From Patescibacteria group bacterium (GTDB lineage: Bacteria; Patescibacteriota; UBA1384; XYA2-FULL-43-10), in the NCBI GenBank assembly GCA_041674405.1, contig JBAYVT010000002.1, positions 87,158-151,157 of the forward strand: a DNA stretch of 64,000 nt, written 5' to 3'. The position numbers and the translations under genes were made by a program. Below are positions 8,665 through 61,200 of this stretch, in pieces (positions within the stretch are counted from its first letter, which is position 1; every line of letters starts with the position of its first letter). The notes below the pieces were generated by a model that was not told the origin of the DNA, made no database searches, and saw only the letters and a list, made by a program, of their open reading frames with translations.

Positions 8665-10596
8665 TTATCTCGTAAAATAATAATTTAGAATATTCTTTGC
8701 GACCGGAGCGGATACCTCATTTCCACCTCCTCCACCTTCTATCAAAACTATCAGGGCAATCGAGGGATTATCATATGGGGCATAACACTCAAACCAAGCA
8801 TGAGTCTTCTGGTTTCCAAAAAATTGCGCTGTTCCAGTTTTTCCGGCAACAGCAACAGGAAAATTCGAACCAAATACGCTTGTTGCCGATCCTCCGGTGA
8901 TAGTCATTCGCATGCCTTCCTGAACCGCTTTAATTACACTTAGGGGTGCAACTTGAGGATTTTCCACACGTGGGCTAAATTCTTTAACAACATTACCTGA
9001 CGGATCAGTAATTTTTTGTACGAATTGCGGATGAAGTAATTTTCCACCATTCGCAATAGTGGCTGTGGCCCTGGCCATTTGAATCGGCGTTACCAATAAA
9101 TCGCCCTGCCCGATTGCTGCATGATATGTATCGCCAATATACCAATCTTCTCCTTTAGTTTTTTGCTTCCAGGCTTCATCCGGCAAAAGCCCGCTTGCTT
9201 CTGATGGCAAATCAATTCCCGTTTCTTCACCTAAGCCAAATTTCTGCCACCAAAATTTCATTGTATCAATCCCAAGGCCCTTAATTTTGTCGAAACCACC
9301 TCCGATAGCATAGAAAAATATATTGTTTGATTCTGCAATCGCGCGGATTATATTTGTTACCCCATGGTCTTTCCAGTCGGGAAAATTCCATTCTCCAATT
9401 GTAATTGCTGGTGGAGTGTCAAAAGATGTATTTACATTGATCGAGCCCTCCGCAAGGCCAGCCGATGCCATCACAATTTTAATAATCGAACCGGGGGGAT
9501 AAATGCCATTTACTGCGCGGTCCAAAAGTGGTTTTGCCGGATCGTTTAATAGATTTTGATAATCAGAATTAGATATGCCATTTACAAACAAATTATTATC
9601 GTAATATGGTACCGAAACATACGACAGGATTGCTCCATTTTGGGGATTCATTGCAATCACTACCCCGGAATCGATGTTTGTGTTTCCGGTATTTTGCTTG
9701 GCTTGCTCGATTCCTTGCATTAGAAATTCATAAGATTTCTGCTGAAGGCCAGAGTCCAGAAACAGCTGTACATTATCGCCAGAGACCGGTTCCCTGTTAT
9801 CACTATCAACCAGCACGCGGTTGATCCGGCCTGTCGAATCAACCTCGATTTGTTCCACACCATTTTTACCTTTCAAATACTCATCATATGTTTTTTCAAT
9901 TCCTGCTTTGCCTGTCCAGTCTGAATTCAAATATTCCGGATGATCCAAAAGATCATCAGAAGATACCTTTCCCGTATAACCTAAAATATGAGATAAACCT
10001 GGCAAATTAACATAATTTCGCGAAGCGCGCTGGGCAACAAAGGCTCCTTCAAGACCAGCCACTTTTTGTTCATCAATTAGCGCCTCCTCTCTCCCAAGAT
10101 TTTGTTTGATTACCACTTCATCCAAAGACAAAAGACCATTTCCCTCAGATGTTTTTTTGATCGAATCCTTGTCTACTCCGGAAATTTCTGCAAGTTTTGC
10201 ATATACCTTGTCCCGATCATCCTGTTTTTTCGGCAAGTCAGAAGGGTACACAGCCAAATCGAAAGTAGGCACGTTTTTTGCAAGTGGATTGCCGCTGGAA
10301 TCAGTTACAAGACCCCTTGTCGCGGAAATAACCCGAGGACGGATTCTGTTCCCCTCTGCTAAACCCATGAGCGATTTGCCTTGGACAATCTGAGATAAAA
10401 ATAACTTTGATGCGATTATTAAGAAAATTCCGATCGTGACTATTTTTAAAATTGTCAATCTTGGCCTGGTCGTTTCTAAGTTCAGCGACCCGATTTCATT
10501 TTCTTCTACCAAAGAAAATTCAGGCTCATCTTTGATCTCAACCCTACGAACATTCTTATCCCCTTTGAGATTTGAGGCATTACCAAATATGTCCAT
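8665..10596 (-). CDS. mrdA: penicillin-binding protein 2 (elongasome transpeptidase)
   Basis: 643 aa with an N-terminal TM anchor, a dimerisation domain and a transpeptidase domain with SxxK/SxN/KTG-type motifs (…KTGTAQ…). It lies directly downstream of mreBCD. Confidence 0.85.
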   Translation of the reverse strand: MDIFGNASNLKGDKNVRRVEIKDEPEFSLVEENEIGSLNLETTRPRLTILKIVTIGIFLIIASKLFLSQIVQGKSLMGLAEGNRIRPRVISATRGLVTDSSGNPLAKNVPTFDLAVYPSDLPKKQDDRDKVYAKLAEISGVDKDSIKKTSEGNGLLSLDEVVIKQNLGREEALIDEQKVAGLEGAFVAQRASRNYVNLPGLSHILGYTGKVSSDDLLDHPEYLNSDWTGKAGIEKTYDEYLKGKNGVEQIEVDSTGRINRVLVDSDNREPVSGDNVQLFLDSGLQQKSYEFLMQGIEQAKQNTGNTNIDSGVVIAMNPQNGAILSYVSVPYYDNNLFVNGISNSDYQNLLNDPAKPLLDRAVNGIYPPGSIIKIVMASAGLAEGSINVNTSFDTPPAITIGEWNFPDWKDHGVTNIIRAIAESNNIFFYAIGGGFDKIKGLGIDTMKFWWQKFGLGEETGIDLPSEASGLLPDEAWKQKTKGEDWYIGDTYHAAIGQGDLLVTPIQMARATATIANGGKLLHPQFVQKITDPSGNVVKEFSPRVENPQVAPLSVIKAVQEGMRMTITGGSATSVFGSNFPVAVAGKTGTAQFFGNQKTHAWFECYAPYDNPSIALIVLIEGGGGGNEVSAPVAKNILNYYFTR

Positions 10597-17897: not shown

Positions 17898-17926
17898 TTC
17901 ATAAGAATTGCCAAATAGCTCATAAA
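17898..17926 (+). promoter_or_regulatory. sigma70-like promoter TTGCCA-N17-TATATT
   Basis: A near-consensus -35/-10 with a 17-nt spacer, about 38 nt upstream of the small ORF at 17964. Confidence 0.5.
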
Positions 17927-17963
17927 TAGCTATATTGTCATCGAGTCTGATACCGCAATCGGG

Positions 17964-18195
17964 AAGGTTATGTATGCCGATGGATAACAGAAAAGGAGTC
18001 TGCCCCGCGATTCTGGTGATTGTCATCGTAGTGCTCATTGGCACACTGGTGGCGATCCACTTCCAACACGAGGCCAGAGCTGCCAGTCCCGAACTTCAGA
18101 TAGAGAGATCACTACCAGCGGGAAATCCGCCCGCCGGACACCCGGACGCTCACCTCACCAGCCTGCAGCCCACCCTTCCGAGGGCGGGCTGCTAA
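17964..18195 (+). CDS. small G+C-rich membrane protein (one TM helix)
   Basis: MPMDNRKGVCPAILVIVIVVLIGTLVAIHF... The ILV-rich TM helix is unlikely to be a chance GC-rich ORF. GGAAGG sits 7 nt upstream, and the gene has its own promoter and a downstream hairpin. Confidence 0.45.
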
Positions 18196-18203
18196 CGTTT
18201 GTA

Positions 18204-18226
18204 AAACAAAAAAAGGCTCATGAGCC
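18204..18226 (-). terminator. intrinsic terminator for alaS (GGCTCATGAGCC palindrome followed by T-run on minus strand)
   Basis: On the minus strand the sequence reads GGCTCATGAGCC followed by TTTTTTTGTTTT. Confidence 0.55.
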
Positions 18227-20980: not shown

Positions 20981-21102
20981 TAAGTCTCTTATCCATGCTT
21001 AGTAGTCTTAGCTATTGGTCCGCTGTAAACTACAAAATCCTAACTATCGACTAAAATATTACCACAGATAAGACCCAAAGAAAAGATAAGACTTAAATCA
21101 AA

Positions 21103-21131
21103 TATCACTTGGCGGCTCCCGAACTTTTCGG
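21103..21131 (-). terminator. intrinsic terminator (GGCGGCTCCCGAA-AAGT-TTCGGGAGCCGCC) downstream of small ORF 21161..21360
   Basis: A 13-bp GC-rich perfect stem followed by a T-rich tract on the minus strand. Confidence 0.65.
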
Positions 21132-21160
21132 GAGCCGCCCAGCCCTCCCCGTATGCTCGC

Positions 21161-21360
21161 CTAGGATTTGGTCGCTGCCCTCTTGCCGTCTCCGACGACA
21201 ACAAAGATCAGCGCAAGACCAATGGTGAGCATCACTACCGGACCCAGGAGATGATGTTCCAGCCACTGCCGCGACCCGTCACTCCAAATGCTGCCTACCA
21301 GGACGACAGCTGCGCCCGAAACAAACATCAGCCCTCCCATCAGGTGCAGGAACCTCATCA
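21161..21360 (-). CDS. small G+C-rich membrane protein (two TM helices)
   Basis: MMRFLHLMGGLMFVSGAAVVLVGSIW...VVMLTIGLALIFVVVG... GGAGGG sits 8 nt upstream of the ATG. The ORF track extends it 16 codons further upstream. Confidence 0.45.
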
Positions 21361-21442
21361 TAATATTCCCTCCATGTAGGAATCGGTGCTCAGCACAAGA
21401 ATAACACAAAAATCTGCACTTGTTTTAATTAATGCAGATTTC

Positions 21443-33968: not shown

Positions 33969-33996
33969 AACCACTTGACCCGCCCCGAGCTTCGGG
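33969..33996 (-). terminator. GC-rich intrinsic terminator GACCCGCCCCG-AGCTT-CGGGGCGGGTC
   Basis: An 11-bp perfect stem just downstream of the small Zn-ribbon gene at 34023..34157. Confidence 0.65.
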
Positions 33997-34022
33997 GCGG
34001 GTCTCCAGATCTTCTTCCGACC

Positions 34023-34157
34023 GCTAGATGCGGCTCTCTGCCGTGTCGCAAGCGTCGCGGTACTCCTGGCAGGTGTACCCCGGATGACGCTCGCCGCACT
34101 CGCCGCAGACCTGTCCCTCTTCGGCTGCTTCTCTCTCTTTCTCCGCAAGTTCGCTCA
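34023..34157 (-). CDS. 44-aa acidic Zn-ribbon-like protein (C-x2-C ... C-x6-C) in G+C-rich islet
   Basis: MSELAEKEREAAEEGQVCGECGERHPGYTCQEYRDACDTAESRI. SD AGGAGG sits 6 nt upstream. It is followed by the terminator at 33969. Confidence 0.5.
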
Positions 34158-34187
34158 TCTTGACCTCCTGTGTAATGGCTGCAGGAT

Positions 34188-34415
34188 TCATCCGTGTGCG
34201 ACTACCGGCTCAAAGGCCAGCATTACTTGAGAAAACGGCGACCTGGGTTGTTTGGTCGCCTTGTTGGAATCGAGGGCCCTGCGACTGCGTTTGCAGAGCC
34301 AGCATCGGTCAGAAAACCCATGATCACTCATGAATCCTCCCCGACCATCGCAAACCGGGCACATATAGCAATCACCAGCCCTTTCACATCGGGGATAATA
34401 CCAAAATTTAAGCAT
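34188..34415 (-). CDS. small Cys-rich protein (three C-x2-C pairs), G+C-rich, directly upstream of 34023..34157
   Basis: …CYMCPVCDGRGGFMSDHGFSDRCWLCKRS…. Its stop is adjacent to the SD of the next gene. The start is uncertain because there is no clear SD at the first ATG. Confidence 0.35.
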   Translation of the reverse strand: MLKFWYYPRCERAGDCYMCPVCDGRGGFMSDHGFSDRCWLCKRSRRALDSNKATKQPRSPFSQVMLAFEPVVAHG

Positions 34416-41074: not shown

Positions 41075-41731
41075 TTATATTGTCACGAGGTCGGCAAGCT
41101 TTTCGAAGGTCTTGTCGCCAATTCCTTTTACATTTTTGAGCTCTTCTATCGATTTAAATCCGCCATGTTGAGTTCGATAGTCAATGATTCGAGTCGCATA
41201 TGCCGTGCCGATGCCTGGTAACGTGTCTAGCTGTGCCGCCGTAGCGGTATTAAGATTAATCTTTCCAACAGGTTTGTTTGCCGATGACGCCGACACCGAA
41301 GTCGAAGCGCCGGCTATCTGTCCAGTTTCAGCAGGCGCAGTTGCCGTAACAGCCGCAGAGCTTGACACAGGCGCATTTTGTTTCGACAAATCGCCTATCT
41401 CTGCTTCCAATTTTTCTATTCTTGCATCCTGATCAGTGATTCTCTTCTCAAGCACCGGCTTGAAATAATTTTCGCGATAGAGCAAAAAACCGCCCGAAAG
41501 GAGTATTAGAACAAGCAAGATTCCCCCAATAGCAACCCGATGTCGCTCGACAAATTCCGCGGAAAATATGCTTTCCTCCGGCAAATCGGGTAAAACATTT
41601 TTTATTTTCGGGTCTTCGGGTTTTTTCCTAATATGAATTGAAATCAAAAATCTTCCCCACCCCTCCTTAACAGAGTCCAACTTTCGCCGCCGCCACTCTT
41701 TAAATTTGATCTTTGGCTTTTGCTTCCACAT
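41075..41731 (-). CDS. comEA: ComEA-like DNA-binding protein (TM anchor + tandem helix-hairpin-helix)
   Basis: The C-terminus is …INLNTATAAQLDTLPGIGTAYATRIIDYRTQHGGFKSIEELKNVKGIGDKTFEKL…. Confidence 0.7.
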   Translation of the reverse strand: MWKQKPKIKFKEWRRRKLDSVKEGWGRFLISIHIRKKPEDPKIKNVLPDLPEESIFSAEFVERHRVAIGGILLVLILLSGGFLLYRENYFKPVLEKRITDQDARIEKLEAEIGDLSKQNAPVSSSAAVTATAPAETGQIAGASTSVSASSANKPVGKINLNTATAAQLDTLPGIGTAYATRIIDYRTQHGGFKSIEELKNVKGIGDKTFEKLADLVTI

Positions 41732-41770: not shown

Positions 41771-43897
41771 TTATTCTAAGTGTTTATGCGTTAAAAATTC
41801 ATCAATTTTCTCCATAACTGCCGGATATTTTTCAATATTATTCGTAACGATCTTTGCCCCTTCCGCCGCTTCATCGATGAGCTCGATGTCGGAATACGAT
41901 GCCATCCTGAGCTCATTATACCCCGACTGTATGGTTCCAAACATATCACCAGCCCCGCGGTTCTTAAGATCTTGCTCTGCCAGCTTGAACCCATCAAGAA
42001 TGTTTTCAAAAGATTTCAGTCGCTCTATCGCCCGCGGGTTCTGGGTACTTGAAAATACAAAGCAGAAGGACTGATGCTCGCCACGGCCAACTCTGCCACG
42101 GAATTGATGCAATTGTGCCAGCCCAAACCGCTCAGCATCTTCGATCATCATGATCGTTGCATTCGGAATATCCACCCCTACCTCGACCACCGATGTAGAT
42201 ACCAATATATCAAGTTTACAAGCTTTAAATTCAGCCATTATTTCGTCTTTTGATTTTCCGCCTTTGGCGAGACCTCGCCTGCCCCGTCGGGGCGAGGCGG
42301 GCATTCGACCGTGGAGCATTCCAATCTTTAGATCAGGAAAGATCTGTTTGCTCAATCGATTGTATTCCGCCATTACCGATTTTCTATCTTCGTCGAATAG
42401 TGTTTCTCTCGTTTGCGCTTCCGATTCTTCAATCAGCGGGCAAATCACAAAGGCTTGGCGGCCAGATTGAATCTGCCGGCGAATGAAGTCATATGCTTTT
42501 AGCCTATTTGTCTCCTCAACAAATCTGGTTTTGATCGGTTTTCGGCCTTTCGGCATGGATTTGATAATCGACAAGTCAAGATCGCCGAAGAGCGCGAGAT
42601 GCAATGATCTTGGAATTGGCGTCGCTGTCATCGATAGAAAGTGCGGCCTTAACCCTTCTCTGCTCTTCGTGAGTTCCGCCCGTTGATTTACACCGAATCT
42701 ATGTTGTTCGTCCACGATCACGAGCCCCAAGTTCTTGATTTCAACTTTGCCCTGAACCAAAGAATGCGTCCCCACTATCACCTGCCTCTCGAGCTCGCCC
42801 GCAACATTTGCCTTTCTCGTAGAGGAAGTCAAAAGCCCGACTGAAACATCTGATTTTTCTAAAAGCTTATTAAGTGTTTCAAAATGCTGTTTGGCAAGGA
42901 TCTCTGTCGGCGCCATAAGTGCCGTTCGGAAGCCGGCTTTCGCAGCAATGTAGGCAGCGAATGCAGCAACCGCAGTTTTTCCGCTCCCGACATCCCCGTT
43001 AAGTAGCCTATTCATTGGTTTTTTTAATGCTAGATCTTTAGCGATTTGCCAAACAGCCTTTTTCTGATCGGTGGTAAGCTCGAATGGCAGAGCATCTGCA
43101 AATTTCTTAAGTTCGGGATCTGCGGTCTCAATTTTTGGGGCTGATTCTGTTGCGATCTCTTCCTTGATTAATTGCGAACGGATGGCAATCAGAAATAATT
43201 CGTCGAATGCTATTCTCCGCCTCGCTTTCGATAAGGCTTGCGAATCCTCCGGCTCGTGGATATTTTTCAGAGCCGACCGGATTCCTAAGAGATCATATTT
43301 ATCTAAAATGGGTTGTGGTAAATATTCCTCAAGTTTTGAGATTTGTCCGCCAGCCGGCGGATTAATATTTGAGATCAATCGAGCTATGAAGTAGCTCGAC
43401 ACACCCGCCGTCTCAGGATAAACTGGAACAATTTTTGGCCGGTTCGCTCGGTTTGGCGACTCCATCACAAGCGAATGAGAAAAAGAATCGTAGGAAACTT
43501 TGCCGTTTAATATAACTTCGGATCCAGCTTTCAGCATTTTTGCCAAGTATGGTTGATTAAACCAAACAACTTTGAGCGATCCGGAGTTGTCTTCAACTAC
43601 TGCTTCTGTCACGGTAAACCCCCTGCGTCTCGTTCTTTTATTGGCAATGCCCACTACTCGAGCTCGGATCGTGAAGTTATTAGTTTTTAGTTCTAAGTTA
43701 TTAGTTAAGTTACTAATTTTAGTGACTTGGGTATAGTCTTTATATCTTCGTGGATAATGATAAATCAAATCTTGGGCTGTATAAATTCCCAGCTTATTGA
43801 GCTTCGGTGCAACCTTTGGCCCGACACCCTTCAAATATTTAATTTCGGTATTTAAATTTATTTCCATTTCACCAACATTATACTTTATACTTTTCAC
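41771..43897 (-). CDS. recG: ATP-dependent DNA helicase RecG
   Basis: 708 aa with an N-terminal wedge domain (…YHYPRRYKDY…) and helicase motifs (…GDVGSGKT…DEQHRFG…). Confidence 0.9.
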   Translation of the reverse strand: MKSIKYNVGEMEINLNTEIKYLKGVGPKVAPKLNKLGIYTAQDLIYHYPRRYKDYTQVTKISNLTNNLELKTNNFTIRARVVGIANKRTRRRGFTVTEAVVEDNSGSLKVVWFNQPYLAKMLKAGSEVILNGKVSYDSFSHSLVMESPNRANRPKIVPVYPETAGVSSYFIARLISNINPPAGGQISKLEEYLPQPILDKYDLLGIRSALKNIHEPEDSQALSKARRRIAFDELFLIAIRSQLIKEEIATESAPKIETADPELKKFADALPFELTTDQKKAVWQIAKDLALKKPMNRLLNGDVGSGKTAVAAFAAYIAAKAGFRTALMAPTEILAKQHFETLNKLLEKSDVSVGLLTSSTRKANVAGELERQVIVGTHSLVQGKVEIKNLGLVIVDEQHRFGVNQRAELTKSREGLRPHFLSMTATPIPRSLHLALFGDLDLSIIKSMPKGRKPIKTRFVEETNRLKAYDFIRRQIQSGRQAFVICPLIEESEAQTRETLFDEDRKSVMAEYNRLSKQIFPDLKIGMLHGRMPASPRRGRRGLAKGGKSKDEIMAEFKACKLDILVSTSVVEVGVDIPNATIMMIEDAERFGLAQLHQFRGRVGRGEHQSFCFVFSSTQNPRAIERLKSFENILDGFKLAEQDLKNRGAGDMFGTIQSGYNELRMASYSDIELIDEAAEGAKIVTNNIEKYPAVMEKIDEFLTHKHLE

Positions 43898-44508
43898 TTT
43901 GCACTATCACAGGTATTGACATTTATTGACCAGCGTGATATAAGTGATCTTGTCGTACCGCGAAGCTTAGGCTCGCGGATCTTCGTCAGGGAGGTAGTGC
44001 CAATGCTCGATCGTCTCGGTCACCGTCTCGCGAAGTCGCCGATATCGTACCCGGTTCTCGGGAAGACCATCGCCGCGATGTCGCGAGTGACCCGCTGGGT
44101 CCAGCGGGTGCACGAGATGCCTGGCTAGCGGTTCCACCCTGCGGACGTCCGGATAGGTGGCTGTTGAACTGGCCGTAAGATCCGGACAGCGGAAGGTGGG
44201 AGCCGGCGGTTGCGTCGTAGGTCGCAAGGACCAACGCGCCGCCGGCTCCCGCCGGCAAGCCTCATCCATCCTTTCTTCTCGGAGGTGCTATCATTATCCT
44301 CCCCACTTCCGAGATTGGTGGAGAAGGAGTTCCCTGGCGGACGCTCCCTCTCCACCACCGCCCCCCAAGACAGGGCACATCGTCGGTTCCCAAACCGGTG
44401 CTCTGTCTGAGTGTAATGCGCCGACCTCCTCGAGGCCGGCGCTTTTGCGTCTAATGAGGGTATTCTAACTTCTGTGATCTTCAGTGAAACAATTCTGTGA
44501 TCGTATAT

Positions 44509-44537
44509 TTGACTTAATGCAGAGCTTCGTATATATT
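44509..44537 (+). promoter_or_regulatory. sigma70-like promoter TTGACT-N17-TATATT inside the GC-rich island
   Basis: A near-consensus -35/-10. About 360 nt downstream there is a stem-loop plus T-run (AGAGCG…CGCTCTCGCTCTTTTTATTT, about 44873..44912), which would delimit a structured transcript. Confidence 0.45.
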
Positions 44538-44986
44538 ATTTCCGTCGCACTCATCAACTGCCCACGGGAGGGACAACCACTTGCTCACCATGCTGTTTCT
44601 GATGTTGACGTTGATGGCGATCTTGCCACGGCCAGCCCTCCTGTTGGGGCTGATCAGCTTTTTCGGTCGGCGGAGCTCGCCCCCCTGCGATCCCGCTCCG
44701 GTCCTGGAGAGACCGGTCTCTGGCGCCGAGCCATCGGGCCAGGGAAAGTATCAGATGAATGTGTGGGGGTCTGAAGGACCCACCGTTGCCCCGGCCTTGC
44801 AAGCCCAAGTTTTTTCACGAGTGTCTTCAGGACACTCCTATCGCCTTACAAGCGACTTACTGACAGAGCGGCCCCTGGTATGGGTCGCTCTCGCTCTTTT
44901 TATTTAAGCTTATCAATATTATGATATAATGCTCTTGCAGAACGCCAACAGATTTTCCACGTCGGATAACGAAGGAGGGTTGTGCT

Positions 44987-45049
44987 ATGAGGGTTCTGTT
45001 CTCTGCCTTGGCATTGCTGGTGCTGGTGGCGCTGGTGGTCGTGGCCTAG
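44987..45049 (+). CDS. 20-aa hydrophobic peptide MRVLFSALALLVLVALVVVA
   Basis: SD AAGGAGGG sits 7 nt upstream of the ATG. A stem-loop (AACGACGGC…GCCGTCGTT, about 45128..45153) and a T-rich tract follow. It resembles a type I toxin or leader peptide. Confidence 0.35.
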   Translation: MRVLFSALALLVLVALVVVA

Positions 45050-45209
45050 GTCCTAGCAAGAGGACCGCGGTGGCTGGATCAACAGCAAGAATCGGATCAT
45101 CCGCCCTGGGCGGATGGCGAGATTAAAACGACGGCTGTCCCTAGCCGTCGTTTCTCGTCGTATGAGATAGTTGCCCAATAGTTTTTAGTTTTAACATTTG
45201 AGTTTTGAG

Positions 45210-46319
45210 TTATTTAATGTATCCCCCTCCCAAAACTTCATCACCCAAGTAGAACACTGCGGATTGACCGGGAGTAATCGCTCTTTGCGGCTCATCAAAT
45301 TCAACTACAATGTTTTTGATCTTTGATATTTGACCTTTGATCTCGCATGGCACCGCTGCATGCCGATATCTTATTTTGACCTTAAGGCTCATAAGTTCTT
45401 CAGCCCTTAAGTTTTGAGGTTCGATCAACCAATTCAAATCTGTCACCGTCATCTCTTTGCTATATATATCCTCATCGTCACCCACGATCAGTTGGTTTTT
45501 CGAAACATTAAATCCAACCACATAAAGTGGTTTTTTTTGAGTTTTTAGCTGACAGCTTGCAGATTGCAGTTGATCTATTCCTTTGCGTTGTCCGATTGTA
45601 TAATTGACCAATCCTTCGTGAGTCCCGAGTACATTCCCCTCTTTATCGGCAATTTCGCCGGGTTTAAAATATTTCTGATCCAAATATCTTTTCAAAAAAA
45701 AGCGATAATCACGATCACCAAAAAAGCAAATTTCCTGGCTTTCCGGCTTTTCCTTGACCGGCAGATCCCACTTTTTTGCCAGTTCCCGCACATCTTTCTT
45801 CTTCATTTCTCCGAGCGGAAACAGAGTTTTTGATAGCTGATTCTGATTCAATCGATAGAGCATGTAGCTTTGATCCTTGGTGCCGTCGATACCAGCTAAA
45901 AGCTGATAACTGGCTACTGGCAGCTTCTGGATTCGCGCATAATGTCCTGTCGCAAGATAATCACAGCCGATAGAAAGCGCTTTTTTAAGTAGAAGATCAA
46001 ATTTGATTTTTTCATTACAGACAATGCACGGGTTTGGGGTTTTTAATTTTTTGTATTCATCGATGAAATAGTCAACAACATCTTTTTTGAATTCATCCAC
46101 AGCGTTTATAACATAGAACGGGATACCAAGGCCGTGCGCCACCTTTCGCGCGTCTTCGAGCGCCTCATAGTTGCAACATCGATTTTCCTTTACCACATTA
46201 CACATAGGGTCAGACCATAATTTCAAAAAAAGCCCGACTAATTCGTGGCCCTCATCTTTTAACATTTTTGCCACGACGGAAGAATCAACTCCACCGGACA
46301 TTGCGACCGCAATTTTCAT
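45210..46319 (-). CDS. mnmA: tRNA-specific 2-thiouridylase
   Basis: MKIAVAMSGGVDSSVVA... PP-loop with downstream catalytic cysteines. Confidence 0.9.
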   Translation of the reverse strand: MKIAVAMSGGVDSSVVAKMLKDEGHELVGLFLKLWSDPMCNVVKENRCCNYEALEDARKVAHGLGIPFYVINAVDEFKKDVVDYFIDEYKKLKTPNPCIVCNEKIKFDLLLKKALSIGCDYLATGHYARIQKLPVASYQLLAGIDGTKDQSYMLYRLNQNQLSKTLFPLGEMKKKDVRELAKKWDLPVKEKPESQEICFFGDRDYRFFLKRYLDQKYFKPGEIADKEGNVLGTHEGLVNYTIGQRKGIDQLQSASCQLKTQKKPLYVVGFNVSKNQLIVGDDEDIYSKEMTVTDLNWLIEPQNLRAEELMSLKVKIRYRHAAVPCEIKGQISKIKNIVVEFDEPQRAITPGQSAVFYLGDEVLGGGYIK

Positions 46320-49294: not shown

Positions 49295-52200
49295 TTAAGA
49301 TTTAGAATTTCTCTTTTCCATCTCAATCTTTTTATTTACGGCAGAAATTTCTTCATCCGTATCAAACCTTACCGGTTTTGGCAGAGTGTAACCTTCCTTG
49401 GTAGCTAAAATTGTGTACCTACCCCGTTTCAAAATCGCCGAAAACTTACCTTTGTCATCAGTTACCGCAGTCTTTACAAGCCTTGTGTTATCTCCGGTCA
49501 TTATCCTAACCAACGTTAGGCCGATAGGCTCGCCCTTATGTCGGTCTACCACCATGCTCCATGGCGACTTTCTTATGACCAGTGAGAAATTGATAACCCA
49601 AAGCAGAATATAGCCGGCAAGGATCAGATAATTTAACAAATTTGGGTCATGAATTAAATTGTTCAAGACCAATATGGTACCGGCCGTAAGTACAACAATC
49701 GAAGCATAATTGAAGAATCTTTCCATTTTTCTAAGCCAACCCAAGATTGCATGAATACCAGAAAGGCTTTTGCCATTTATACTCATTATGATCGTCGGCA
49801 CCAAAAATCCTTTGGTATAGCTATCAATCTCATATATTTTCCCTGTGTCAAAATCATAATATTGATCCGGTTTTGGTGCGAGCTGGTACTTGTCTTTCTT
49901 CGCGATGATTTTGTATTTGCCCGGAGGTTCGGCGAATCCGTACACGCCTGATTTATCGGTGGTTGTTGTCTCAATAACCCTTTCTGTGCCATCTTCGCCT
50001 ACTTTAATCAAGCTAACCATCGCTCCAGAAAGCGGCAAACCGGTTCCATCCTCGAGCACTTGGCCCCATTTTTTGCGTTTCTTTTTAACCGTACCGAAAG
50101 ATAGAATGGAATAAACAATTATATGAATGACTTCCTTGAGTGAGAATAAAGTTATTAAGTTTGTTGCGGGTGCCAATCCGGCGACAACTACTGCCATGCC
50201 CAGAGCTGCTGCGGCAGTCACTGGCGGAGCAGCCTCTTTTGAGATACCAACAGCTGCATAAACTTTTTCTATTCCCCCTGCAACAATATCGATTGAAACC
50301 GCCACATCTTCGACGCCGCCGACAATGCCACCAATAATAACTTCACCGATTGTTTCTTTTCGTACATTTACTGACGCAGCAGCCTTCACATCACCGAATG
50401 AAGCTTGAACGGTGTTTTCAAATGAGCCAACTTCCTTACCTGCGGTGAATAATCCGGTTTGGTCAATCTCCCCGCCACCATTCATAACCGACCACACGAT
50501 AATTGCTGTTGGAATTTCTGAATCATCTGAGGCAAAAGCTTTTGCACTAAACTGCACGGAGTCTTCAACTTTTATTTTCGCACTTGTCGGTGAAATGATA
50601 ATGTATGATGCAGTTTTTTCCGGATTTCCCAGAGTTGTCACCTCAGACGCAGTAGAAAAATCAGTTTCAACGTTGCTATTATTTCTTGCCTTAAGCCTAT
50701 AAGCATAATTCGTAGAAGCTGCAAGGCCTGTGTTTATAAATCCGTCGCTTCCACCCCAGTCGGCATACAATTGCCAATCGGGACTATCGGAAAATGCCCC
50801 ATCGGAATGCCTGACATACTTACCTGCGGTGTCATTGTAAATCGCATATCGTGTGTTAGCTGGGTTGCCGTTTTGGTTAATCGCAATTTTTACTGATGAC
50901 TCGGAAACTACTGAAAGAATTGGGGCATCTGGTGTGTTCGCAAGAGTATAAGATGTAGCAAAATTTGACTTTTCCGTTCCTTTCCTATTGGTCACGGTAA
51001 CTTGGCGAGTATATGCCGTATTCGGAGCAAGAGATTGTTCTAGCCAGGACGAGGCAGAAGCTGCAAGTGTTCCCGAGAGCGGATTGCCAGCGGCATCTAA
51101 CACTGCCCAACTGGTGTGATCATCGTCGGTATTTGACCAAACCCAATTAATCTGGCTGGTAACAATGTCTGTTCCCCTGAAATCTGTAGAGGGTGTAGGC
51201 CCAAGGCAATTCGCCGTTGTGAAATTTATGATTGCAGAATAATTCCCCGCGCCATTCTGGTTTGACGTTGCGGACACCTTGGCGTAATACTTTGTTTTTC
51301 TTGCAAGGCCCGATAAAGAAGTGGCTGTTGTGCTGATATCCGAAATTGTGCCTTTATTTGAAGCTCCGGAATCCGTTCCGTACGAAAGAGTATATTTATC
51401 CGCGCCCTCTGGCGCAATCCATGTCAGGTTCGCCGAAGTTCTGCAAACGGCATTTGCTTCTAGGCTCGCTGGAGCAGCTGGCGGAGTGACTTTTGCCGAA
51501 GATGGAGAATAAGTTGTGTCGGTATTGTCCCCATTTCTTGCTTTGGCCTTGATCCAATACTGGGTATTTGGATCAAGATTAGCCAATGTATATGATGTAC
51601 TTGTCTGCCAGGACATGCCGGCGGGATCGGTAAAATCCGTGCCATTTATTGAATATTGGATCCAATAGTTTGTTCCTGATGGATTCAAACTTGGGCTAAT
51701 TGTTCCTGTTACGAAATATGCCCCCGCCACCGTTGAAACCGTCGGCATATTGGCAAGCGTGTACTTTGGAGATGAATAGGCGCTTGTTGAGTTGCCGGCG
51801 TCATTAAACGCAACAACTTTAGCACAATATTGTGTATTTATATCCTTACCATCAACGTCTTGCGAGGTTTCCCCGGCACCAGTCGTATAGTCGGGAGAAT
51901 CTGGATAAGAAGCCTGTGAACAATCAGAATTCGGAGTGGTAGAAATATAAACCTTGAATCCGGTTTCATCAGATGAGTTGTCGTCCCAAGTCACTTGGAA
52001 AGAATCGTTTTGGATGGTGCCTATTGCTGCATTAGTTGGCGCACTCGGCGCTGTAACACAAGAGCCGGTGGGAGAAATATTCCAATCGGTATTACTTCCC
52101 CCATCCGTAGAATAAGTAGCACAGAAAGAGGCACCCGAATTGGTAGAATTTGAGATGGTGGCGTACGAAATAGTTGCGGTGGCCGGGTTAATATTCCAGC

Positions 52201-55200
52201 CACCAGAACCACCAGACCTCTTAAGAACTACATGGCTTCCCGAAGTTCCGGTTACCGTCCATGTGCCAGATATCGTTTGGGTCGAGCCCGCAGAAAAGGA
52301 TAAGGTTTTGCCTGCAGTAGCGGCAGTGAGGTTATTAAAAGTCGTATCTCCCTCTATCAAGGAGTCACCAGTTAGCGTAACTGTACCGCTCCCAGGAGTG
52401 AAGATACCGCCTGCATGGTTCCAACCGCCAGATACACTCATGGTGGATGGAGCACTGAAGCTAGCATTACCGTTTAAGATGAAATTACCAATGTTCATCG
52501 AAGGGTTATTTGTGATTCCATCAACATCGGTCTGGTTGGTTCCATCACCAATTGTAAGATTGTTAGTAACACCAAAGCTACCGGAAGATAGAGTCAAAGT
52601 TTTGTTTCCAACAAAGCTCTGCCAGATAAAACCGGTCATATCGCCAAAAGAGTGATAAGGACCTGAACCAACATTATAGGTACCAATGACGGCACCAGTC
52701 GAGCCGTTAAGCTTTGTTATGGTGTTGCCGCCAATGCTCGTTACCCATACATTGCCGTCGCCATCAATTCCCGGATGGTCGCCATTGCCGATCGAATAAG
52801 TTCCGATTACTGCACCAGTCGAGCCGTTAACTTTGTAGACCGTTCCGCTATTAACAACCCAGACATTGCCGCTGCCATCAACTGCCAGATTAGCACCAGG
52901 AACCGAGTAGATATCAATGACAGCGCCGGTCGAACCGTTAAGCTTGGTAATGCCAATATCGCCGTCGCTAGCCGTCCAGACATTCCCATCACCGTCGACT
53001 GCTATGCTAAAAGGAGCGCCGTTAACCGAATAAGTGCCGATCAGTGCACCAGTTGAGCTGTCAAGTTTAGTAACGTTACCACTTCCGTGATTGCAAATCC
53101 AAACATTGCCACTACGATCAGCCGCCACTCCCGAAGGACTAGTACCCGTTGAATATGTGCCCATGACTGCACCAGTCGAGCCATTAACCTTATTAATATG
53201 GCTGCTATCGTAGGGGACCCAGACATTGCCAGCATTATCAACGCCCGGGTTACCACCACCGACCGCATAAGTGCCGATCAGTGCGCCGGTCGAACCATTG
53301 AGTTTAGTAACGTTGCCGCTGTAAGGATTGCCGACCCAGACATTGCCACTGCCATCAACTGCCACACCATAAGGACCAGTACCCACCGCGTAAGTTCCAA
53401 TGACGGCACCAGTTGAACTGTTAAGTTTGGTTATATTGTTGCTACCGCTATTAGTCACCCAAACATACGGTGTTACCGCTGGATCCAGCAATTCTAGGTT
53501 ATAATAATTTGCCGCCGTAATGTTTGTGTTAGAAGAAGCACGATATATAAAGGTAGAAGTCGAAGCAGTAAATGTACCCGTTTTAACAAACGGCGTGCCC
53601 GAACCGGTCAAAGTTATTGTCCGATTTGAAGCATCGAAGGTACCAGCATTGATCGTCAGTATGTTTGTAGTTGTGATATCCCCGGCTGCAGTGAAAGTCG
53701 TTCCCGCATGATCAAGGTAAAGATTGTAGTAAGTGGTCGCCGTAATATTAGTTGCCAATGCTCCGGTATACTTGAGGGTTGATGTGCCCTCTTGGAAAGT
53801 TCCGGTTACTACCAATGGCGTTCCTGGCGCGGCCAAAGTAATCGTTCTGGAGGATGCAGCAAATGTGCCGGCATTGATGGTAAGGACTCCATTGATTGTG
53901 ATATTTCCGGCAGCAGTAAAGGTTGTGCCGGTATGGTCTGCAGCGTAGAGGTTGCAATAGGTAATAGCATTAATGTTTGTTGCGCTTGTTCCTTGGAATT
54001 TGACTGTCGATGTACTTTCGGTAAATGTGCCGCTGATGGATAGTGGATCACCTGATTCTGTCAAAACTAAGGTAGTATTATCCAGATTGACAACAGCAGT
54101 TGCCGGGATTTTAAGATTTGGGATAGTGGAGGTGGGAGCAGATGATGAATTAGGTCTCCAGGTATCAGTGCCTATGACATAGAGTATCTGGGAGGTTAGA
54201 GTTGCTTGATTGTAGGGCATAGCTAGGTCATTGGTTGCATTACCAATATCAAAGAGGATATCAGCATCAGACGAAACTGAACCATCGTATTGTGATAAAT
54301 CGGTATTGGATAGTGTTTGGGCAGTACCATTACCGACGACCAAATGCTGCTCAAAGAGAGTAACTCCAGTAATATCTCCCGATGTGTACTTGGTAACAGC
54401 ATTGGCTCGATGGGATTCAGTCGCGCCATCGATGAATACCGTAATTACATCACCGGCAGAGGGTTCGGTAACGCCAGAAATCGTCCAGGAACCAGAAGCA
54501 GTGGTGCCTGTAGCTGCATCCAAGGTGCCATTGATCGCTACCTTGACCGTCTCACCATCAGCACAAGCGGTTGATTCATCATACTGCTTACAAGTGCCGG
54601 AGATAGAGAAGGATGAACAGCCACTTGTTACAGTTGGAGCAGGAAGGGTACCATTGAACGAGGTCCAAGTCCCAGTCGTTGGCAAGACAGTGGGAGCACC
54701 GGCACTACCCCAGTCCACATAAGCCGACTGATCAGCAGGCGCAAGAAGTTTGCTGGTGTCCGACAACAGGTACCAACTACTGTCCCATGGATCTACTGCC
54801 AAAACCCTATTACTTGTATTGGTGTAATAAGGATTACTCCTAGCATCTACACTCGCATAAGTATACGACCCATTATAGCTTGAATCGCCCGCTCCAGAAA
54901 AAGTATACGACGAACATGCGGAGCATGATCCGGTTAAACTAATATTCCAGCCGGTATTTCCCCCGCCGTCAACTGAGTAAGTCGCACAGAAACTACCTGT
55001 ATTACTAGACTTAGAAACATTGGCGTAGGATATTGCAACATTATTACTTGCAGATAAATTCCAGTTGGCACCGCCCGATGGAGCTAAAGTAATTAAGTTA
55101 CCGGAAGTCCCAGCAATATTAATTGCATAATTGAAATTATAGTTTGAACCCGAGTTGAAAGTTAGGGTTGAGGGCGCAGTTGTGTTGGTAAATGTACGCG

Positions 55201-58200
55201 TGACCGACGTTGCCCCAGTGAAGGTGAAATTTGTATTAGCATGCTCAGCCGTAAGGTTGTAATAAGTTACTGGTGTAATATTTGTTGCGGAAGAACCTGT
55301 ATATTTTATCGTTGAAGTCGAGTAAGTAAATGTACCTGTGGCTACGAAAGGTGTACCTGATCCAGACAAAGTGATGGTTTTATTTGATGCATTAAATGTG
55401 CCGGCATTTATTGTCAAAACATTGTTTGCGGTGATGTCGCCCGCCGCAGTGTAGGTTTGGCCAGCTTTATCGATGTAAAGATTGTAATAGGTCGCAGAAG
55501 TTACATTAACCGGACCTGTACCTGTGTATTTTACAGTTGAAGTAGAAGCGGTGAATGTTCCGGTTTTAACAAACGGCATGCTAGTTCCAGATAAAGTAAT
55601 TGTCTTATTTGATGCATCAAAGGTTCCGGCATTGATGGTAAAAACACCAGTTCCGTTTGAACCAGTTGAGATATCACCGGCTGCTGTAAAAGTTGTTCCT
55701 GCGTGATCTAAATAAAGATTATTATAGGTAGTTGATGCAATATTAGTCGCAGAAGCGCCTGTGTATTTGACTGTGCCAGTCATACACTGAAATGTACCGT
55801 TGATCACAAACGGCGTACCAGAACCGGAAAGGGTGATGGTACCTGTCGGCGAATCATTAAATGTACCAGCATTAACGGTGAAAACATTTGTTGATGTAAT
55901 ATCCCCTGCTGCGCTAAAGATGGTCCCTGCACGATCTAAATAAAGATTGTAATAGGTAGTCGCTGTAATATTCGTTGCCAACGAGCCAGTATATTTAACT
56001 GTGGATGTAGAAGGTGTAAAAACGACATTATTTACAAAAGGAGTACCTGATCCAGACAAGGTAATAGTTTTATTGGACGCATCGAAAATCGAGTCATTGG
56101 TCAAAACATTAGTGACATTTATATCGCCCATGGCTGTAGATACTGCTGTGGTTACTAAGTGGAGGTTGTAATAGGTGGTAGAGGCAATGTTTGTTGCCGC
56201 TGCGCCGTAATATTCTACGGTTGAAGTTGATGCCGTAAAAGTACCAGTAACAACAAATGGCGTTCCCGTTGACATGAATGTAATAGTCTTATTAGAGGCA
56301 TCAAAGGTGCCAGCATTGATGGTAAAAATATTTTCCACCTTGATATTTCCAGCCGCAGTAAATGTAGTACCTGCATGGTCCAGATACAGATTATAATAAC
56401 CAGGAACCATTCCCGAACCCATTGCAGTTACGTTTGTCGCCGAAGCACCGGTATATTTGATCGTTGAAGTTGAAGATTGAAACGTTCCGTTATTAACAAA
56501 TGGCGTGCCCGAACCAGATAATGTGATTGTTTTATTGGATGCATTAAATTCACCAGTGGTAATGCTTAAGACACCAGATACATCAATATCGTTATTTGCT
56601 GTCCAAATCCCCGAGCCATCATTGAAGGTCAAATTATTAAAGGCCGATCCTCCCGTCATATTTCCGGAAAGAGTTTTATCAGCTCCACCCGTCTGAAAAG
56701 TAACGGTTCCGGAATTGTTGTCAAATGTTCCGCTTGAATGATTCCAATTTCCATTAACAATAAAATTATTAGATGATGCGGGCGCACTTAATGACCCGCC
56801 CGAAATTGTGACATTACCAGCACTAATATCATGTGCCCCAGCGGTTAAGGTACCGGATGAAACAAGGAGATTGTTTGTAACATCAATATTGCTGGAAAGA
56901 GACCAGGCTGAAGATGGGATCGAATAATAAATCGTGCCTCTTACATAATTTATAATTGCATTTGAAACAGATGGAGTTATTTTCTTAATTGTCATCGCAA
57001 CGCCAAAGCTTGAATCGTTAACATCATTTGGCGTCCAAGTTAATCCCCACAGATTTCCATCCCCACCAAACGGAACATAATCCTCTGTCCCCGACCATAA
57101 TGCATCCGCAGATTGATTGGTGCCCCCAATGGTACCAGACTTAATGATTTCAATAATATCATCGGAAACAGGAGGCGAACTACCCATCCTTTTTGCTTCC
57201 ATTTTAATACCTGTAACCGTTGCATTGGTTGGAATATTAAAACCAAAATTTGTCGCTTTTAGATAATTAGAGCGTTTTCCTTGGGGAATACCAACAATTC
57301 TCGCATAATTTCCATCATCAGCAGTGATATCTTCGGGAGTTGACCAAGGACCATCTCCATAGCTTGCATCATTGGTTCCTGTTCCACATCCCAATGTGGA
57401 ACTAGTACTTCCCCCGCCGTTCTCACCTGCGATTGTAAGATTATAAAATTTCTGCCCAGAACCCAATATGATTGAGAAGTCTCCGCTTGTCCCATTAAAA
57501 TTTATTGTAGAATTTCCTTCATTGAAAGTAACATTTGAAGAATCCCAATCACCTGCAATATTAATTATGTGGCTTCCAGGGCTAAAGCTACCTGACGTCA
57601 TAGTAAAACCATCCGCAATCGTAATATCTCCAGCTGCAATAAAGTCTGTATTCGCATGGTTGATGACTAAATTATTATACGTCACGGAAGCCAAATTTGT
57701 ATCTGATGATCCTTCGTAGGAAATTGTTGAAGTTGACGGAGTAAAGGTACCGGTCACAACAAACGGGGTTCCACTCCCTGATAAAGTAATGGTTTTATTG
57801 GAAGCATCAAATGTGCCTGCATTGATAGTAAGGACTCCAGAAACGGTAATGTTCCCTGCTGCAGCAAAGGTAGTACCAGTCTTGTCTGCCGCGTAGAGAT
57901 TGTAATAAGAAAGAGCATTAACATTCGTAGCGCCTGATCCCTGGAATTTAATGGTGGAAGTGCCAATTGTGAAGGTGCCGGTGATAGAAAGTGGTGTGCC
58001 GGAGGCGGTTAATGCTAGTGTTGTGCCGGTAAGGTTGACGATGGCTGATGTCGGAATTACAAGGTTAGAAATGGTGGATGTTGGAGCATCAGTAGCAGCC
58101 GGTTGCCAAGTGTTGGAAGCCAAAACATAAAGCTTCTGGTCGGTATCTGTTTGGGTGCCTGACTCGGGCAGTGTTAAGTCTTTGGTTGTGGCATTAACTT

Positions 58201-61200
58201 CAAAGAAGATATCTTCATCAGACGAGACAGAGTTATCGTATTTCTCCATATCAGCATTTGAAAGAGTTTGGTTATCAGCTGAACCGATGGATAAATGTTT
58301 TTCATAAAGTGCTATGCCGGATACATTACCGGAGACATACTTTGTCACTGCATTTGCTTCATTGGCATCAGCAACACCATCGACAAAGATGGTGATAGTG
58401 TCGCCAGCCGATGGGGCTGTTACTCCGGTGATAGACCAGGACCCGCTTGAAGTTGTACCGGTAGCCGCATCGAGGCTCCCATTGATTGCTACTTTGATCG
58501 TTTCGCTGTCAGCACAATTCGAGGATTCGTCATATTGTTTGCAGGTACCGGAGATGGAGATGCTGGCCGGCGGAAATGCCCAATGATGGTTATTTCCACC
58601 GTCATATCCGCCAGTCGTGGCATTTACCAAGCTTCCTCCAGTTGCATCGGAATCGGTGACATTAACATAAGAAGCAGGTGGGCTATCCTGGACAACATTA
58701 AAATTCCAATGGTTGGTAGGTGTAGATGAAACCATAAATATTCTAGTACCTACTGCTCCGCCATTGATATCAAGGCCCATGATTGAATAAGTTGATCCAG
58801 CATGGAATGTAAGTTTAGAGGAAGGGGTAGTATCAGTAAAGACCCCATTGATAGTTGCCGAATCTGCAAAATAAACACCATTTGCCGACGCATTAGTAAT
58901 AGTAATGCTGTTAAAATCATGATTTCCATTTGTTCCACCAGCAGTGATGGTCTGTAAATCACTACCATCCAAGGTTAGTGTTCCGGTACCAGAAGTAAAG
59001 ATGCCAGTGGCCGAATTCGTATAATCGCCTGCAAGATAAAATGCAGCCGTACTTGAAGCCGTGAGAGTATTACCAGCGTCAATAATAACATCTCCATCAA
59101 CGTTAACTATGGGATCGTTTGTTTCGAATGACAATACGGCAGTTAATGCGCCTCCTCCAACATGCAAATTATTTGAAACATTTAAAGTGCCTGCCTGAAC
59201 ATTATGGGTACCTGAAAAATTTTCACGCGCTATCTGAAGGTTATAATATGTAGTCGCGGTTACATTTACAGCGGCGCCGACTGGGTCCGGGCAATCATAA
59301 AATAATGTTGAATTGTTGGCAGTGAAAGTGCCGTTGATCACAAAAGGAGTGTTAGTTCCTAATAGTGTAATTGTTTTATTTGAAGCGTCGAATTCACCTG
59401 CATTAATTGTTAAAAGATTTGAAACAGTCATATCCCCAGCCGCGGTAAAAGTCGACCCAGTTCGATCAAGATAAAGATTGTAGAATGTCGTCGCCGTCAC
59501 ATTTGTCGCAGATGAACCCTTATACTGAACGGTAGATGTGCCCTCCTGAAAAGTAGCGTTTATATTCACAAAAGGCGTGCCTGAGCCATTCAAAACAATT
59601 GTTTTATCGGAGGCATTAAAGGTTCCTACATCTAGCGTCAAAACGCTGCCAACGGTAATATTTCCAGCTGCGGTAAAGGTGGTACCAGTATGAACCAAAT
59701 ATAGATTATAATACGTCGCACTAGTTACATTGGTAGCGCTCGATCCGGCATACTTTATGGTTGAAGTAGCTTCTTGAAAAGTACCATTTACAACAAAAGG
59801 TGTACCAGAACCATATAGATAAACTGTCTTATCCGATCCGTTATATATCGTCCCGGTCTGAATAGTGAAAACTCCGTAGACCGAGAACGAGCCGGAAGAA
59901 AGCGGAGTAAATGTCGTGCCCGAATGGTCGAGGATTAGATTGTGGAACCCGAGTAACGCAACGTCAGTTGCTGACGCACTCTGATATGTGACGGTTGAAG
60001 TGTCGTAATTGAAGGTACTGCCCGTCTCCATTCTAAGAGGCCTCGACGAACTTTGTCCTGAGCCAGTAATTACTAAAGAATTATTATCCAATGTCATCGT
60101 AGACGATGCTTCGGCATATGATTTCGGCACAGTTGATGTGGTTCCACCACCGGATGCAGGCCGCCATGTATTATTTGCCTTAATTATAATCTTTTGGTCT
60201 GCATCAGTTTGGGTTCCGACTGCCGGCAGGGTTAGATTGTTTGATCCGTCAATTTCGAAAAAGATATCTTCATCGGAGGAGACGGAATTATCGTATTTAG
60301 AGATATCGTTGTTCGATAATGTTTGATTATCGTCAGAACCTAGATACAAATGCTTTTCGTAAAGGCTAATTCCTGTAATATTGCCCGAACCATCGTATTT
60401 GGTAACAGCATTCGCTTCGTTACCGTCAGCCACTCCATCGATAAATACGGTAATTGTGTCCCCAGAAGCAGGTGCTGTAACACCGCTTATGCTCCACGAA
60501 CCTCCGGATGTGGTTCCGGTTTGGGCTTGAATAGTACCATTTACCGCAACTTTTACAGTCTCTGAATCAGCGGCATTTGTCGATTCGTCATATTGCTTAG
60601 CAGTCCCTGAGATTAAAATTGTGGCAGGCCCACCTCCGCCTTCAGAAATAATAACCCCCGGCTCGACTTCTCCTGAAGCATCCCAGTCGTAAGGAGTCGG
60701 GTCACTAACTGGATCAGCATTAAACCAAGTATACCCAGGGTAAAAACTACCCAAAGTTGATGAAACAGCCCAAGATCCTCCCATATTTCCACTAAACCAA
60801 AGATAAGAGTTATTTTCATTTTTATAGACAGGGTACGGCGACGAACCGATATCTCCAAAGTATTGATCGTTATATGCAAACGTACCATTTGCATTCGTAT
60901 TACCAGCATTTGTGCCTGTATATGTATGGCCCGGATCTCCTCCCGGCGTTACGCCGCTTGGCGCCGGAGCGGTTCCCAGATTGGCCGTCCAGCTATTGCT
61001 TCCGGGAAGCGCGCCCTCCATAAGATAATAGTGTACATCCATCATCGCATCATTAAGAACGTCGCTAAGCATATATGCTCCGCCCCCGTCCCAGTACAAG
61101 TACATATTATTAGCGTTTTTCCAATAGTCACTTCCATAGGCATCCGTTCCGCCGTAAGAGTATTCGCCGTTATAATTGGCATCTCCTGCTCCCGCAACAG

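Follow-up and report, generated by a model that had tools for sequence, protein, structure and literature searches.

The current analysis concerns a G+C-rich island of about 1.3 kb (positions 43898-45209) in the slot between recG and mnmA, within a 64,000-nucleotide (nt) stretch of a Patescibacteria genome (GenBank assembly accession number GCA_041674405.1, contig JBAYVT010000002.1, positions 87,158 to 151,157), which is hereafter called the window. With a probability of roughly 0.55, the island is read here as a hypervariable accessory slot that contains three orphan mini-genes whose composition looks foreign; one of them has a long hairpin-rich 3' region. By their sequence, these mini-genes are three plus-strand transcription units, A, B, and C, that are antiparallel to recG and mnmA and share a common layout, i.e., a sigma-70-type promoter, a leader of 36 to 52 nt, a Shine-Dalgarno site 7 to 8 nt ahead of the start codon, a short open reading frame (ORF), and an intrinsic terminator.

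The G+C content of the island is 57.6%, compared with 41.9% for the remaining window, and measured over 200-nt intervals it changes from 0.315 just outside the island to 0.64 inside it within 200 nt. The abrupt compositional switch between the two genes had already been noticed in an earlier interpretation that was based on the letters alone (the sequence-only reading), and it is fully borne out, as are the two flanks, which Pfam identifies as recG (41771-43897, minus strand; RecG_wedge, DEAD, and Helicase_C domains) and mnmA (45210-46319, minus strand; tRNA_Me_trans, E = 4.5e-76). The island is not uniform and consists of three G+C-rich blocks (approximately 43945-44447, 44540-44895, and 44940-45155), which correspond to the three units, and of A+T-rich spacers between them, where the promoters and terminators are located.

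The sequence-only reading held that the region has no credible protein gene. It is correct that a long ORF is missing, but the statement is too strong, as three short ORFs combine a canonically spaced ribosome-binding site, an open frame, and codon-position bias. The third-position G+C content is 0.80 for ORF A, 0.85 for the first 33 codons of ORF B, and 0.85 for ORF C, with second-position values of 0.30 to 0.49, compared with 0.39 +/- 0.04 (maximum 0.46) for the third positions of 28 long genes of the window. The three ORFs lie about ten standard deviations above the genome norm, and this codon-position bias is the pattern of real coding sequence under G+C pressure. Shuffling of the island with preserved dinucleotides (2000 trials, counting qualifying ORFs preceded by a Shine-Dalgarno site) rarely reproduced such ORFs: judged over the whole ORF, where A and C qualify, two ORFs occurred in 0 of 2000 shuffles and one in 3 of 2000, and judged over the first 20 codons, where B and C qualify, two ORFs occurred in 1 of 2000, figures that represent strong support rather than formal P-values because the criteria were chosen post hoc. 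No ORF on the minus strand of the island qualified under either criterion. The leaders and initiation regions of A, B, and C are no more structured than shuffled sequences (z = -0.7, -0.2, and +0.2, respectively). All three ORFs were missed by the gene callers whose calls were visible.

The second line of evidence is the content of the same slot in relatives. The nearest MnmA relatives are 55 to 70% identical and carry the labels Berkelbacteria, Saccharibacteria, or "Patescibacteria group"; in most near relatives whose contig reaches far enough, mnmA is followed by recG. At least ten distinct Patescibacteria relatives possess one or more G+C-rich blocks in the gap after mnmA, antiparallel to the flanking genes. 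Their promoters are near-perfect (TTGACA-17-TATAxT, often TG-extended) and are followed by leaders of 25 to 65 nt, Shine-Dalgarno sites, ORFs of 41 to 417 amino acids (aa) with a third-position G+C content of 0.66 to 0.86, and intrinsic terminators. About half of the products begin with a signal peptide that resembles the whole 20-aa product of unit C. None of these cassettes shows similarity to the island, nor do they resemble each other at the BLAST level, save for duplicate contigs of one genome. Conserved flanks thus enclose DNA of atypical composition that is non-homologous among relatives, and fast turnover of the slot is suggested by cassettes that are built to the same plan in the relatives but are unrelated. 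One cassette encodes an Lnt-like CN-hydrolase whose nearest named homologues are found in Verrucomicrobia (34 to 37% identity), which fits a foreign origin. In the slot of a Berkelbacteria genome (locus L007), an IS200-like Y1 transposase gene (8512-9057, minus strand; Pfam Y1_Tnp, E = 1e-8) of normal A+T-rich composition is located between two G+C-rich cassettes, with repeats around it. In another relative (L005), an element of about 80 nt was observed ahead of each of two cassettes (8850-8780 and 7885-7810, minus strand); it comprises a hairpin (CCCCTCC...GGAGGGG) followed by TTAGGGGTGGTT and may mark cassette boundaries, and no counterpart of it was noticed in the window. That islands and gene transfer are frequent among Patescibacteria is known from general reports (PMC12455944), and our literature search found nothing describing such cassettes.

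For the island itself, no alignable homologue was found in phages, plasmids, viral contigs, or the 95 related loci searched (together about 0.7 Mb). Specifically, the phage and plasmid collections gave no match to the island in blastn, the related loci, all of which were searched, gave none to the three units (blastn, nhmmer) or to the small ORFs (tblastn), and the remainder of the window held no paralogue of the island (blastn, tblastx). ORF A had 0 matches among 1.84 billion representative proteins, and the sole match of ORF B among 5.8 billion proteins was a variant from the same organism. Pfam, PHROGs, NCBIfam, and PADLOC returned no match for the island ORFs, protein scans of a viral collection with ORF B and three cassette proteins of relatives found nothing, cluster look-ups yielded no further island variants, and scans of genomes and metagenomes with MnmA for closer relatives found none above about 70% identity. 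A match to the stem pattern in a viral contig with 72% G+C was discarded as a chance hit, as there was no extended similarity. The horizontal acquisition proposed in the sequence-only reading fits the third-position G+C content and the unrelated slot content, although neither a donor nor a homologue was found.

The promoter of unit B (44509-44537, plus strand; TTGACT-17-TATATT) agrees with the consensus at 10 of 12 positions, just as a near-consensus promoter had been recognized there before. Three direct TTCWGTG repeats begin just upstream of its -35 element at 44470, 44480, and 44493 on the plus strand (span 44470-44499, spacing 10 and 13 nt); written out, the array reads TTCTGTGATC-TTCAGTGAAA-N3-TTCTGTGATC. 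It is the single triple cluster in the window, compared with 0.04 expected by chance. Arrays of the same motif (3 to 6 copies, 10- to 14-nt spacing) are located directly upstream of both cassette promoters of L007, and they are also present in ordinary intergenic regions of L005, L006, and L007; the arrays of the relatives lie at 10255-10320, 8328-8394, 3669-3734, and 5374-5403 in L007, at 3765-3794 in L005, and at 4168-4204 in L006. According to a rough estimate, about 0.002 triple clusters are expected by chance over all loci searched. One of the L007 arrays is situated upstream of the phd-iscS-nifU-folD-mnmA gene cluster. Sites of winged-helix response regulators typically consist of direct repeats with a spacing of roughly one helical turn, and the array is probably an operator, i.e., a candidate binding array of a clade-specific transcription factor. 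It suggests that unit B is under native host control, into which the array would wire the unit, and it argues against unit B being inert junk.

The Shine-Dalgarno site of unit B (GGGAGGG, 44566-44572, plus strand) is separated by 8 nt from the TTG start codon at 44581, from which ORF B (44581-44907, plus strand) stays open for 108 aa and runs into the terminator. Coding periodicity is confined to the first 33 codons (44581-44679), which specify a hydrophobic helix; the codon-position G+C content is 0.45/0.42/0.85 there versus 0.67/0.53/0.57 in the rest of the frame. Directly after codon 33 lies a C6 tract (44680-44685). A near-identical short contig from a second (sister) sample in ENA, variant L096, differs from the window at four sites, namely, three substitutions within 10 nt (44646, 44653, and 44655) and a 1-nt deletion in the C tract. 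In the frame of ORF B, the substitutions amount to one synonymous change and one exchange of Ile for Leu, as opposed to three radical changes in the alternative frame, and the C5 tract leads to a different tail and a product of about 57 aa. The C6/C5 difference could reflect slipped-strand variation or a difference between assemblies. The hydrophobic N-terminus is the part of unit B that behaves like a protein, and the predicted product is a small membrane-anchored protein with a hydrophobic N-terminus of 33 aa and a strain-variable tail. A 129-aa protein, P0001, was rejected as a real product: its start codon is located inside promoter B, and the call is a gene-caller artefact of the 1-nt deletion. 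Unit B ends with a terminator at 44865-44901 on the plus strand (10-bp stem and T-run; -18.1 kcal/mol, z = -3.2) without a T-run on the minus strand; its stem-loop (44865-44891) corresponds, with a small shift in coordinates, to one already described. As a whole, unit B is no more structured than shuffled sequences (z = -1.1).

Unit C starts from a putative promoter on the plus strand with an extended -10 element, TGATATAAT (44922-44930), and a weak -35 element, 57 nt upstream of the start of the unit's ORF; the exact -10 sequence occurs five times in the window and is thus not enriched by itself. The Shine-Dalgarno site AAGGAGGG (44972-44979, plus strand) lies 7 nt ahead of the ATG at 44987, and ORF C (44987-45049, plus strand) comprises 20 codons for the hydrophobic product MRVLFSALALLVLVALVVVA, with a codon-position G+C content of 0.70/0.30/0.85. 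The idea of a ribosome-binding site hidden in a 5' hairpin was dismissed for this unit, the leader being no more structured than shuffles. One gene caller and the NCBI annotation of a Patescibacteria genome assembled from a metagenome give instead a 65-aa hypothetical protein (MFA7244062.1, 44929-45126, plus strand). This protein would begin within the -10 element of promoter C, and its codon-position G+C content (0.58/0.64/0.48) does not resemble that of coding sequence; the 20-aa ORF, which is read in a different frame, is the better fit. Downstream of ORF C, the RNA is structured over about 100 nt. The fold of the unit (z = -3.3) is strand specific, with -99.1 kcal/mol and 16 G-U pairs on the plus strand versus -75.6 kcal/mol and 3 G-U pairs on the minus strand. 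A perfect 11-bp hairpin at 45126-45153 (-19.1 kcal/mol, z = -5.4 on the plus strand; -22.0 kcal/mol, z = -5.0 on the minus strand) is followed on the minus strand by TTTTAAT. It is predicted to be a bidirectional terminator that serves unit C on the plus strand and, because UUUUAAU follows it in the opposite direction, also mnmA.

The findings for units B and C raise the question of whether these units, and perhaps also unit A, are what is left of longer G+C-rich genes that coded for secreted or membrane proteins: truncated 5' ends that are being lost but have so far kept their promoter, ribosome-binding site, and signal peptide. This explanation is the most serious competitor, even if we regard it as rather unlikely. 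Full-length G+C-rich ORFs of 150 to 260 aa with N-terminal signal peptides occupy the same slot in the same orientation in relatives, the unit C product has the appearance of a signal peptide with nothing attached, and in ORF B the periodicity is lost after codon 33 and the tail is frame-shifted between the two strains at the C tract. Against this explanation, tblastn of the relatives' cassette proteins against the window revealed no residual similarity, and no frame shows residual periodicity downstream of the stop codons. Moreover, a terminator is well placed right after each short ORF region, promoters and Shine-Dalgarno sites are intact, and unit B has the conserved regulatory repeat array. 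The sequence-only reading had offered a decayed element as one of its options; with promoters, ribosome-binding sites, and terminators intact, decay is not shown, although B and C could nonetheless be shortened 5' portions of longer secreted-protein genes such as those of relatives.

Unit A combines a short ORF with the most structured part of the island. Its promoter (43916-43944, plus strand; TTGACA-17-TATAAG, with a TG extension of the -10 element at 43936-43937) was found by reading the sequence and by scanning; one scan, which required T at the last -10 position, missed it, and a second one recovered it. It is divergent from the promoter region of recG, for which an apparent TATAAT of its own can be read near the gene start on the minus strand. 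The Shine-Dalgarno site AGGGAGG (43988-43994, plus strand) is followed after 8 nt by the ATG at 44003, and ORF A (44003-44128, plus strand; 41 codons; codon-position G+C 0.66/0.49/0.80) has the predicted product MLDRLGHRLAKSPISYPVLGKTIAAMSRVTRWVQRVHEMPG, a basic peptide of 41 aa. The ORF-bearing 5' third of the unit shows no unusual structure (z = -1.8 versus shuffles), while the unit as a whole folds better than all 100 shuffles (z = -7.3). The 3' domain (44129-44447, plus strand) comprises about 320 nt with six hairpins including the terminator, the other stems being located at approximately 44147-44187, 44195-44253, 44277-44314, 44317-44356, and 44366-44408 on the plus strand. Its minimum free energy is -167 kcal/mol, compared with -127 +/- 5.7 kcal/mol for shuffled sequences (z = -7.1; 0 of 100 shuffles as stable), and no frame of the domain shows codon periodicity. 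Because the folding energy is nearly equal on both strands, the orientation of the domain rests on the promoter and the one-sided T-run. The latter belongs to the terminator (hairpin 44418-44442 with TTTT at 44443-44446, plus strand; -20.7 kcal/mol, z = -4.4), which lacks a T-run on the minus strand and confirms the terminator-like GC hairpin of the sequence-only reading. Both long stems reported there exist as well, with corrected coordinates: the perfect 12-nt arms GGGAGCCGGCGG and CCGCCGGCTCCC, 29 nt apart and 15 nt long once extended, are at 44198-44209 and 44239-44250 (shifted by 1 nt), and the inverted repeat ACCCGCTGG-GT-CCAGCGGGT is at 44090-44109 rather than at 44086-44105. A group II intron domain V was considered for the long hairpin and rejected, as Rfam gave no intron match and the units have promoters of their own.

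The 3' domain of unit A is either a 3' untranslated region or a separate RNA domain, and it is the only part of the island where the structured-RNA interpretation of the sequence-only reading survives; the rest reads better as small coding units. If the interpretation were extended to all three units, they would be small to medium-sized regulatory RNAs with incidental ORFs, and unit A would be an RNA of about 500 nt. The fold of units A and C, the latter with its strand-specific G-U pairing, is in line with this view, and so are four units in three relatives (L007 at 2256, L038 at 366, and L078 at 764 and 1066) that have a consensus promoter, a structured G+C-rich body, and a terminator without a convincing ORF. 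In addition, the hexamer CCUCCC, complementary to Shine-Dalgarno sites, is exposed in the loop of hairpin 44277-44314. This explanation is nevertheless less probable still than truncated remnants: unit B does not exceed shuffles, the ORF-bearing 5' parts are unstructured, the hairpin energy of unit A is symmetric between the strands, and the canonical spacing of Shine-Dalgarno site and start codon in all three units together with the third-position G+C bias is not predicted by RNA structure. Covariation cannot support it, there being no alignable homologue; the other copies of the island are identical or lack informative changes in stems, and the fold is supported by its thermodynamic stability. 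The layout of unit A has a parallel of different sequence in L005, where a 43-aa ORF at 1167 is followed by 298 structured nt.

Searches with the models of Rfam 15 point in the same direction. At gathering thresholds, only eight transfer RNAs (tRNAs) were detected in the whole window and nothing besides tRNAs in six related loci, and a permissive scan of 43700-45400 returned only sub-threshold noise. ARAGORN found no transfer-messenger RNA (tmRNA). The failure of the sequence-only reading to recognize RNase P, tmRNA, signal recognition particle, or 6S RNA by eye is thereby confirmed, and no housekeeping RNA has been overlooked in the island. Among the permissive matches, ar14 at 44329-44447 ranked first (E = 0.039 in a 1.7-kb search). 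Like the ar14-type small RNAs of Alphaproteobacteria, the region has tandem hairpins, some of them with exposed C-rich motifs resembling an anti-Shine-Dalgarno sequence, and a terminator at its end; unlike them, it scores far below the gathering threshold (24.8 versus 58.8 bits) and comes from a different phylum, so that it is not a member of this family.

The small size of the ORFs is also reminiscent of type I toxin-antitoxin modules, in which B and/or C would be small hydrophobic membrane toxins checked by an RNA. Both MRVLFSALALLVLVALVVVA and the first 33 residues of B are small and hydrophobic, and in size and composition the two peptides (about 33 and 20 aa) presumably resemble Ibs-, Fst-, or TisB-type toxins. 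Free-standing units with strong promoters, very short hydrophobic ORFs on predicted transcripts, and structured RNA nearby complete the likeness. No candidate for an antitoxin RNA emerged from the sequence: antisense promoters are poor, with minus-strand matches of 9/12 that are within chance expectation, and complementarity between the units is limited to imperfect stretches of 10 to 15 nt. The leaders leave the Shine-Dalgarno sites free (z around 0) instead of sequestering them, and there is no match to a toxin family in NCBIfam or Pfam, which makes toxins highly improbable here. An assembly chimera or a high-G+C contamination, for which the abrupt change of composition is the only argument, is effectively refuted by junctions that the independent ENA and Logan assemblies share without any difference and that recur near-identically in the JGI assembly (where the copy of the island differs only by runs of N and contig-end errors), by the near-identical L096 contig, by the metagenome-derived NCBI genome in which an ORF is annotated within the island, by spacers inside the island that match the A+T-rich composition of the host, by the last hairpin that doubles as the mnmA terminator, and by relatives in which this position is likewise occupied by G+C-rich DNA.

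Returning to the three mini-genes, several observations weigh against them. Non-coding, hyper-structured sequence makes up about 60% of unit A, an unusual feature in a simple messenger RNA (mRNA), and promoters and spacers are host-like (A+T-rich), which a simple recent transfer leaves unexplained. ORFs C (20 aa) and A (41 aa) are very short and their translation is predicted only. The shuffle criteria were picked after the data had been seen, and L096 is the one informative strain variant. The collections searched contained no homologue of ORF A, B, or C, so that evolutionary evidence of purifying selection is lacking, and no donor lineage was found.

With these reservations, the conserved housekeeping genes recG and mnmA would enclose a slot that hosts autonomous monocistronic mini-genes, whose high third-position G+C content (0.80 to 0.85 versus 0.39) would result from a recent gain from a high-G+C source or from unusual selection. 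The hairpin array after ORF A most likely would act as the 3' stabilizer and terminator region of the ORF A mRNA, and a separate role as a regulatory RNA is possible. As the products are hydrophobic and secreted proteins are encoded in the cassettes of relatives, our guess is that the products act at the membrane or the cell surface.

Among known systems, phage morons are self-contained units of promoter, ORF, and terminator with deviant composition between conserved genes. The island is similar in that its units have their own promoter and terminator, deviate in composition, are situated between conserved genes, and differ in content among relatives. The differences are that the flanks are the chromosomal genes recG and mnmA and not a prophage, that the ORFs are much smaller (20 to 108 aa), and that neither phage DNA nor matches to PHROGs were found. 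With O-antigen and capsule loci and genomic islets, the island has in common a fixed position, atypical G+C content, non-homologous alleles, and many secreted or membrane proteins. Unlike these loci, it is tiny (1.3 kb with three mini-genes), has a G+C content above that of the genome, and lacks biosynthetic genes; mobility genes are absent from the slot of this genome, while that of L007 harbors the IS200-like transposase gene. An integron cassette array, including an attC reading of the long hairpin, was considered and rejected, as each unit, unlike the promoterless cassettes of integrons, has its own promoter and terminator; no integrase was found among the neighbours characterized with Pfam, though not every ORF of the window was scanned.

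A bolder extension, to which we give little credence, is that a Berkelbacteria-like clade keeps the mnmA-recG gap as a dedicated exchange slot for swapping G+C-rich expression cassettes. Cassettes might then be supplied by DNA uptake, possibly with participation of a ComEA-type gene two genes away, and be placed under a clade-specific regulator that would bind the TTCWGTG repeats. The outcome might be a fast-changing repertoire of secreted and membrane micro-proteins for dealing with hosts or phages, and the array of unit A together with the ORF-less units of relatives could represent a new class of structured RNAs.

With respect to the surroundings, the other neighbours of the island comprise the ComEA-type (HHH_3) gene, folD, nifU, and iscS, as identified with Pfam. 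The HHH_3 gene (41075-41731, minus strand; E = 3.4e-25) is located directly downstream of recG and two genes from the slot. On the other side, an antitoxin-like PhdYeFM gene adjoins iscS, and about 3 kb past mnmA, beyond folD, nifU, iscS, and this phd gene, lies a single ORF (49295-61471, minus strand) that encodes 4058 aa and has weak fn3 matches. The window holds three more G+C-rich intergenic islets with small G+C-rich ORFs and terminators. The first (17908-18215, plus strand) encodes a single-pass membrane protein of about 71 to 73 aa behind a promoter TTGCCA-17-TATATT, the second (21090-21370, minus strand) a 66-aa protein with two hydrophobic segments, and the third (33975-34400, minus strand) contains Cys-rich ORFs of 44 and 58 aa, one of them with a CxxCxGxG motif of the DnaJ type. 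At least three of these four ORFs have a recognizable Shine-Dalgarno-like site, and the islet proteins have no match in Pfam, PHROGs, or NCBIfam. The occurrence of such islets elsewhere in the genome counts in favour of the mini-gene reading.

If the three ORFs of the island are expressed, they would clearly exemplify micro-protein genes that have escaped annotation in a genome of the candidate phyla radiation. The pattern throughout the clade, i.e., an excess of third-position G+C, near-consensus promoters, a fixed slot, and unrelated content in each relative examined, may be of greater importance than the single island. It suggests a regular route for the gain and loss of small secreted and membrane proteins in reduced, host-dependent bacteria, and may bear on how bacteria with tiny genomes diversify their cell surface.

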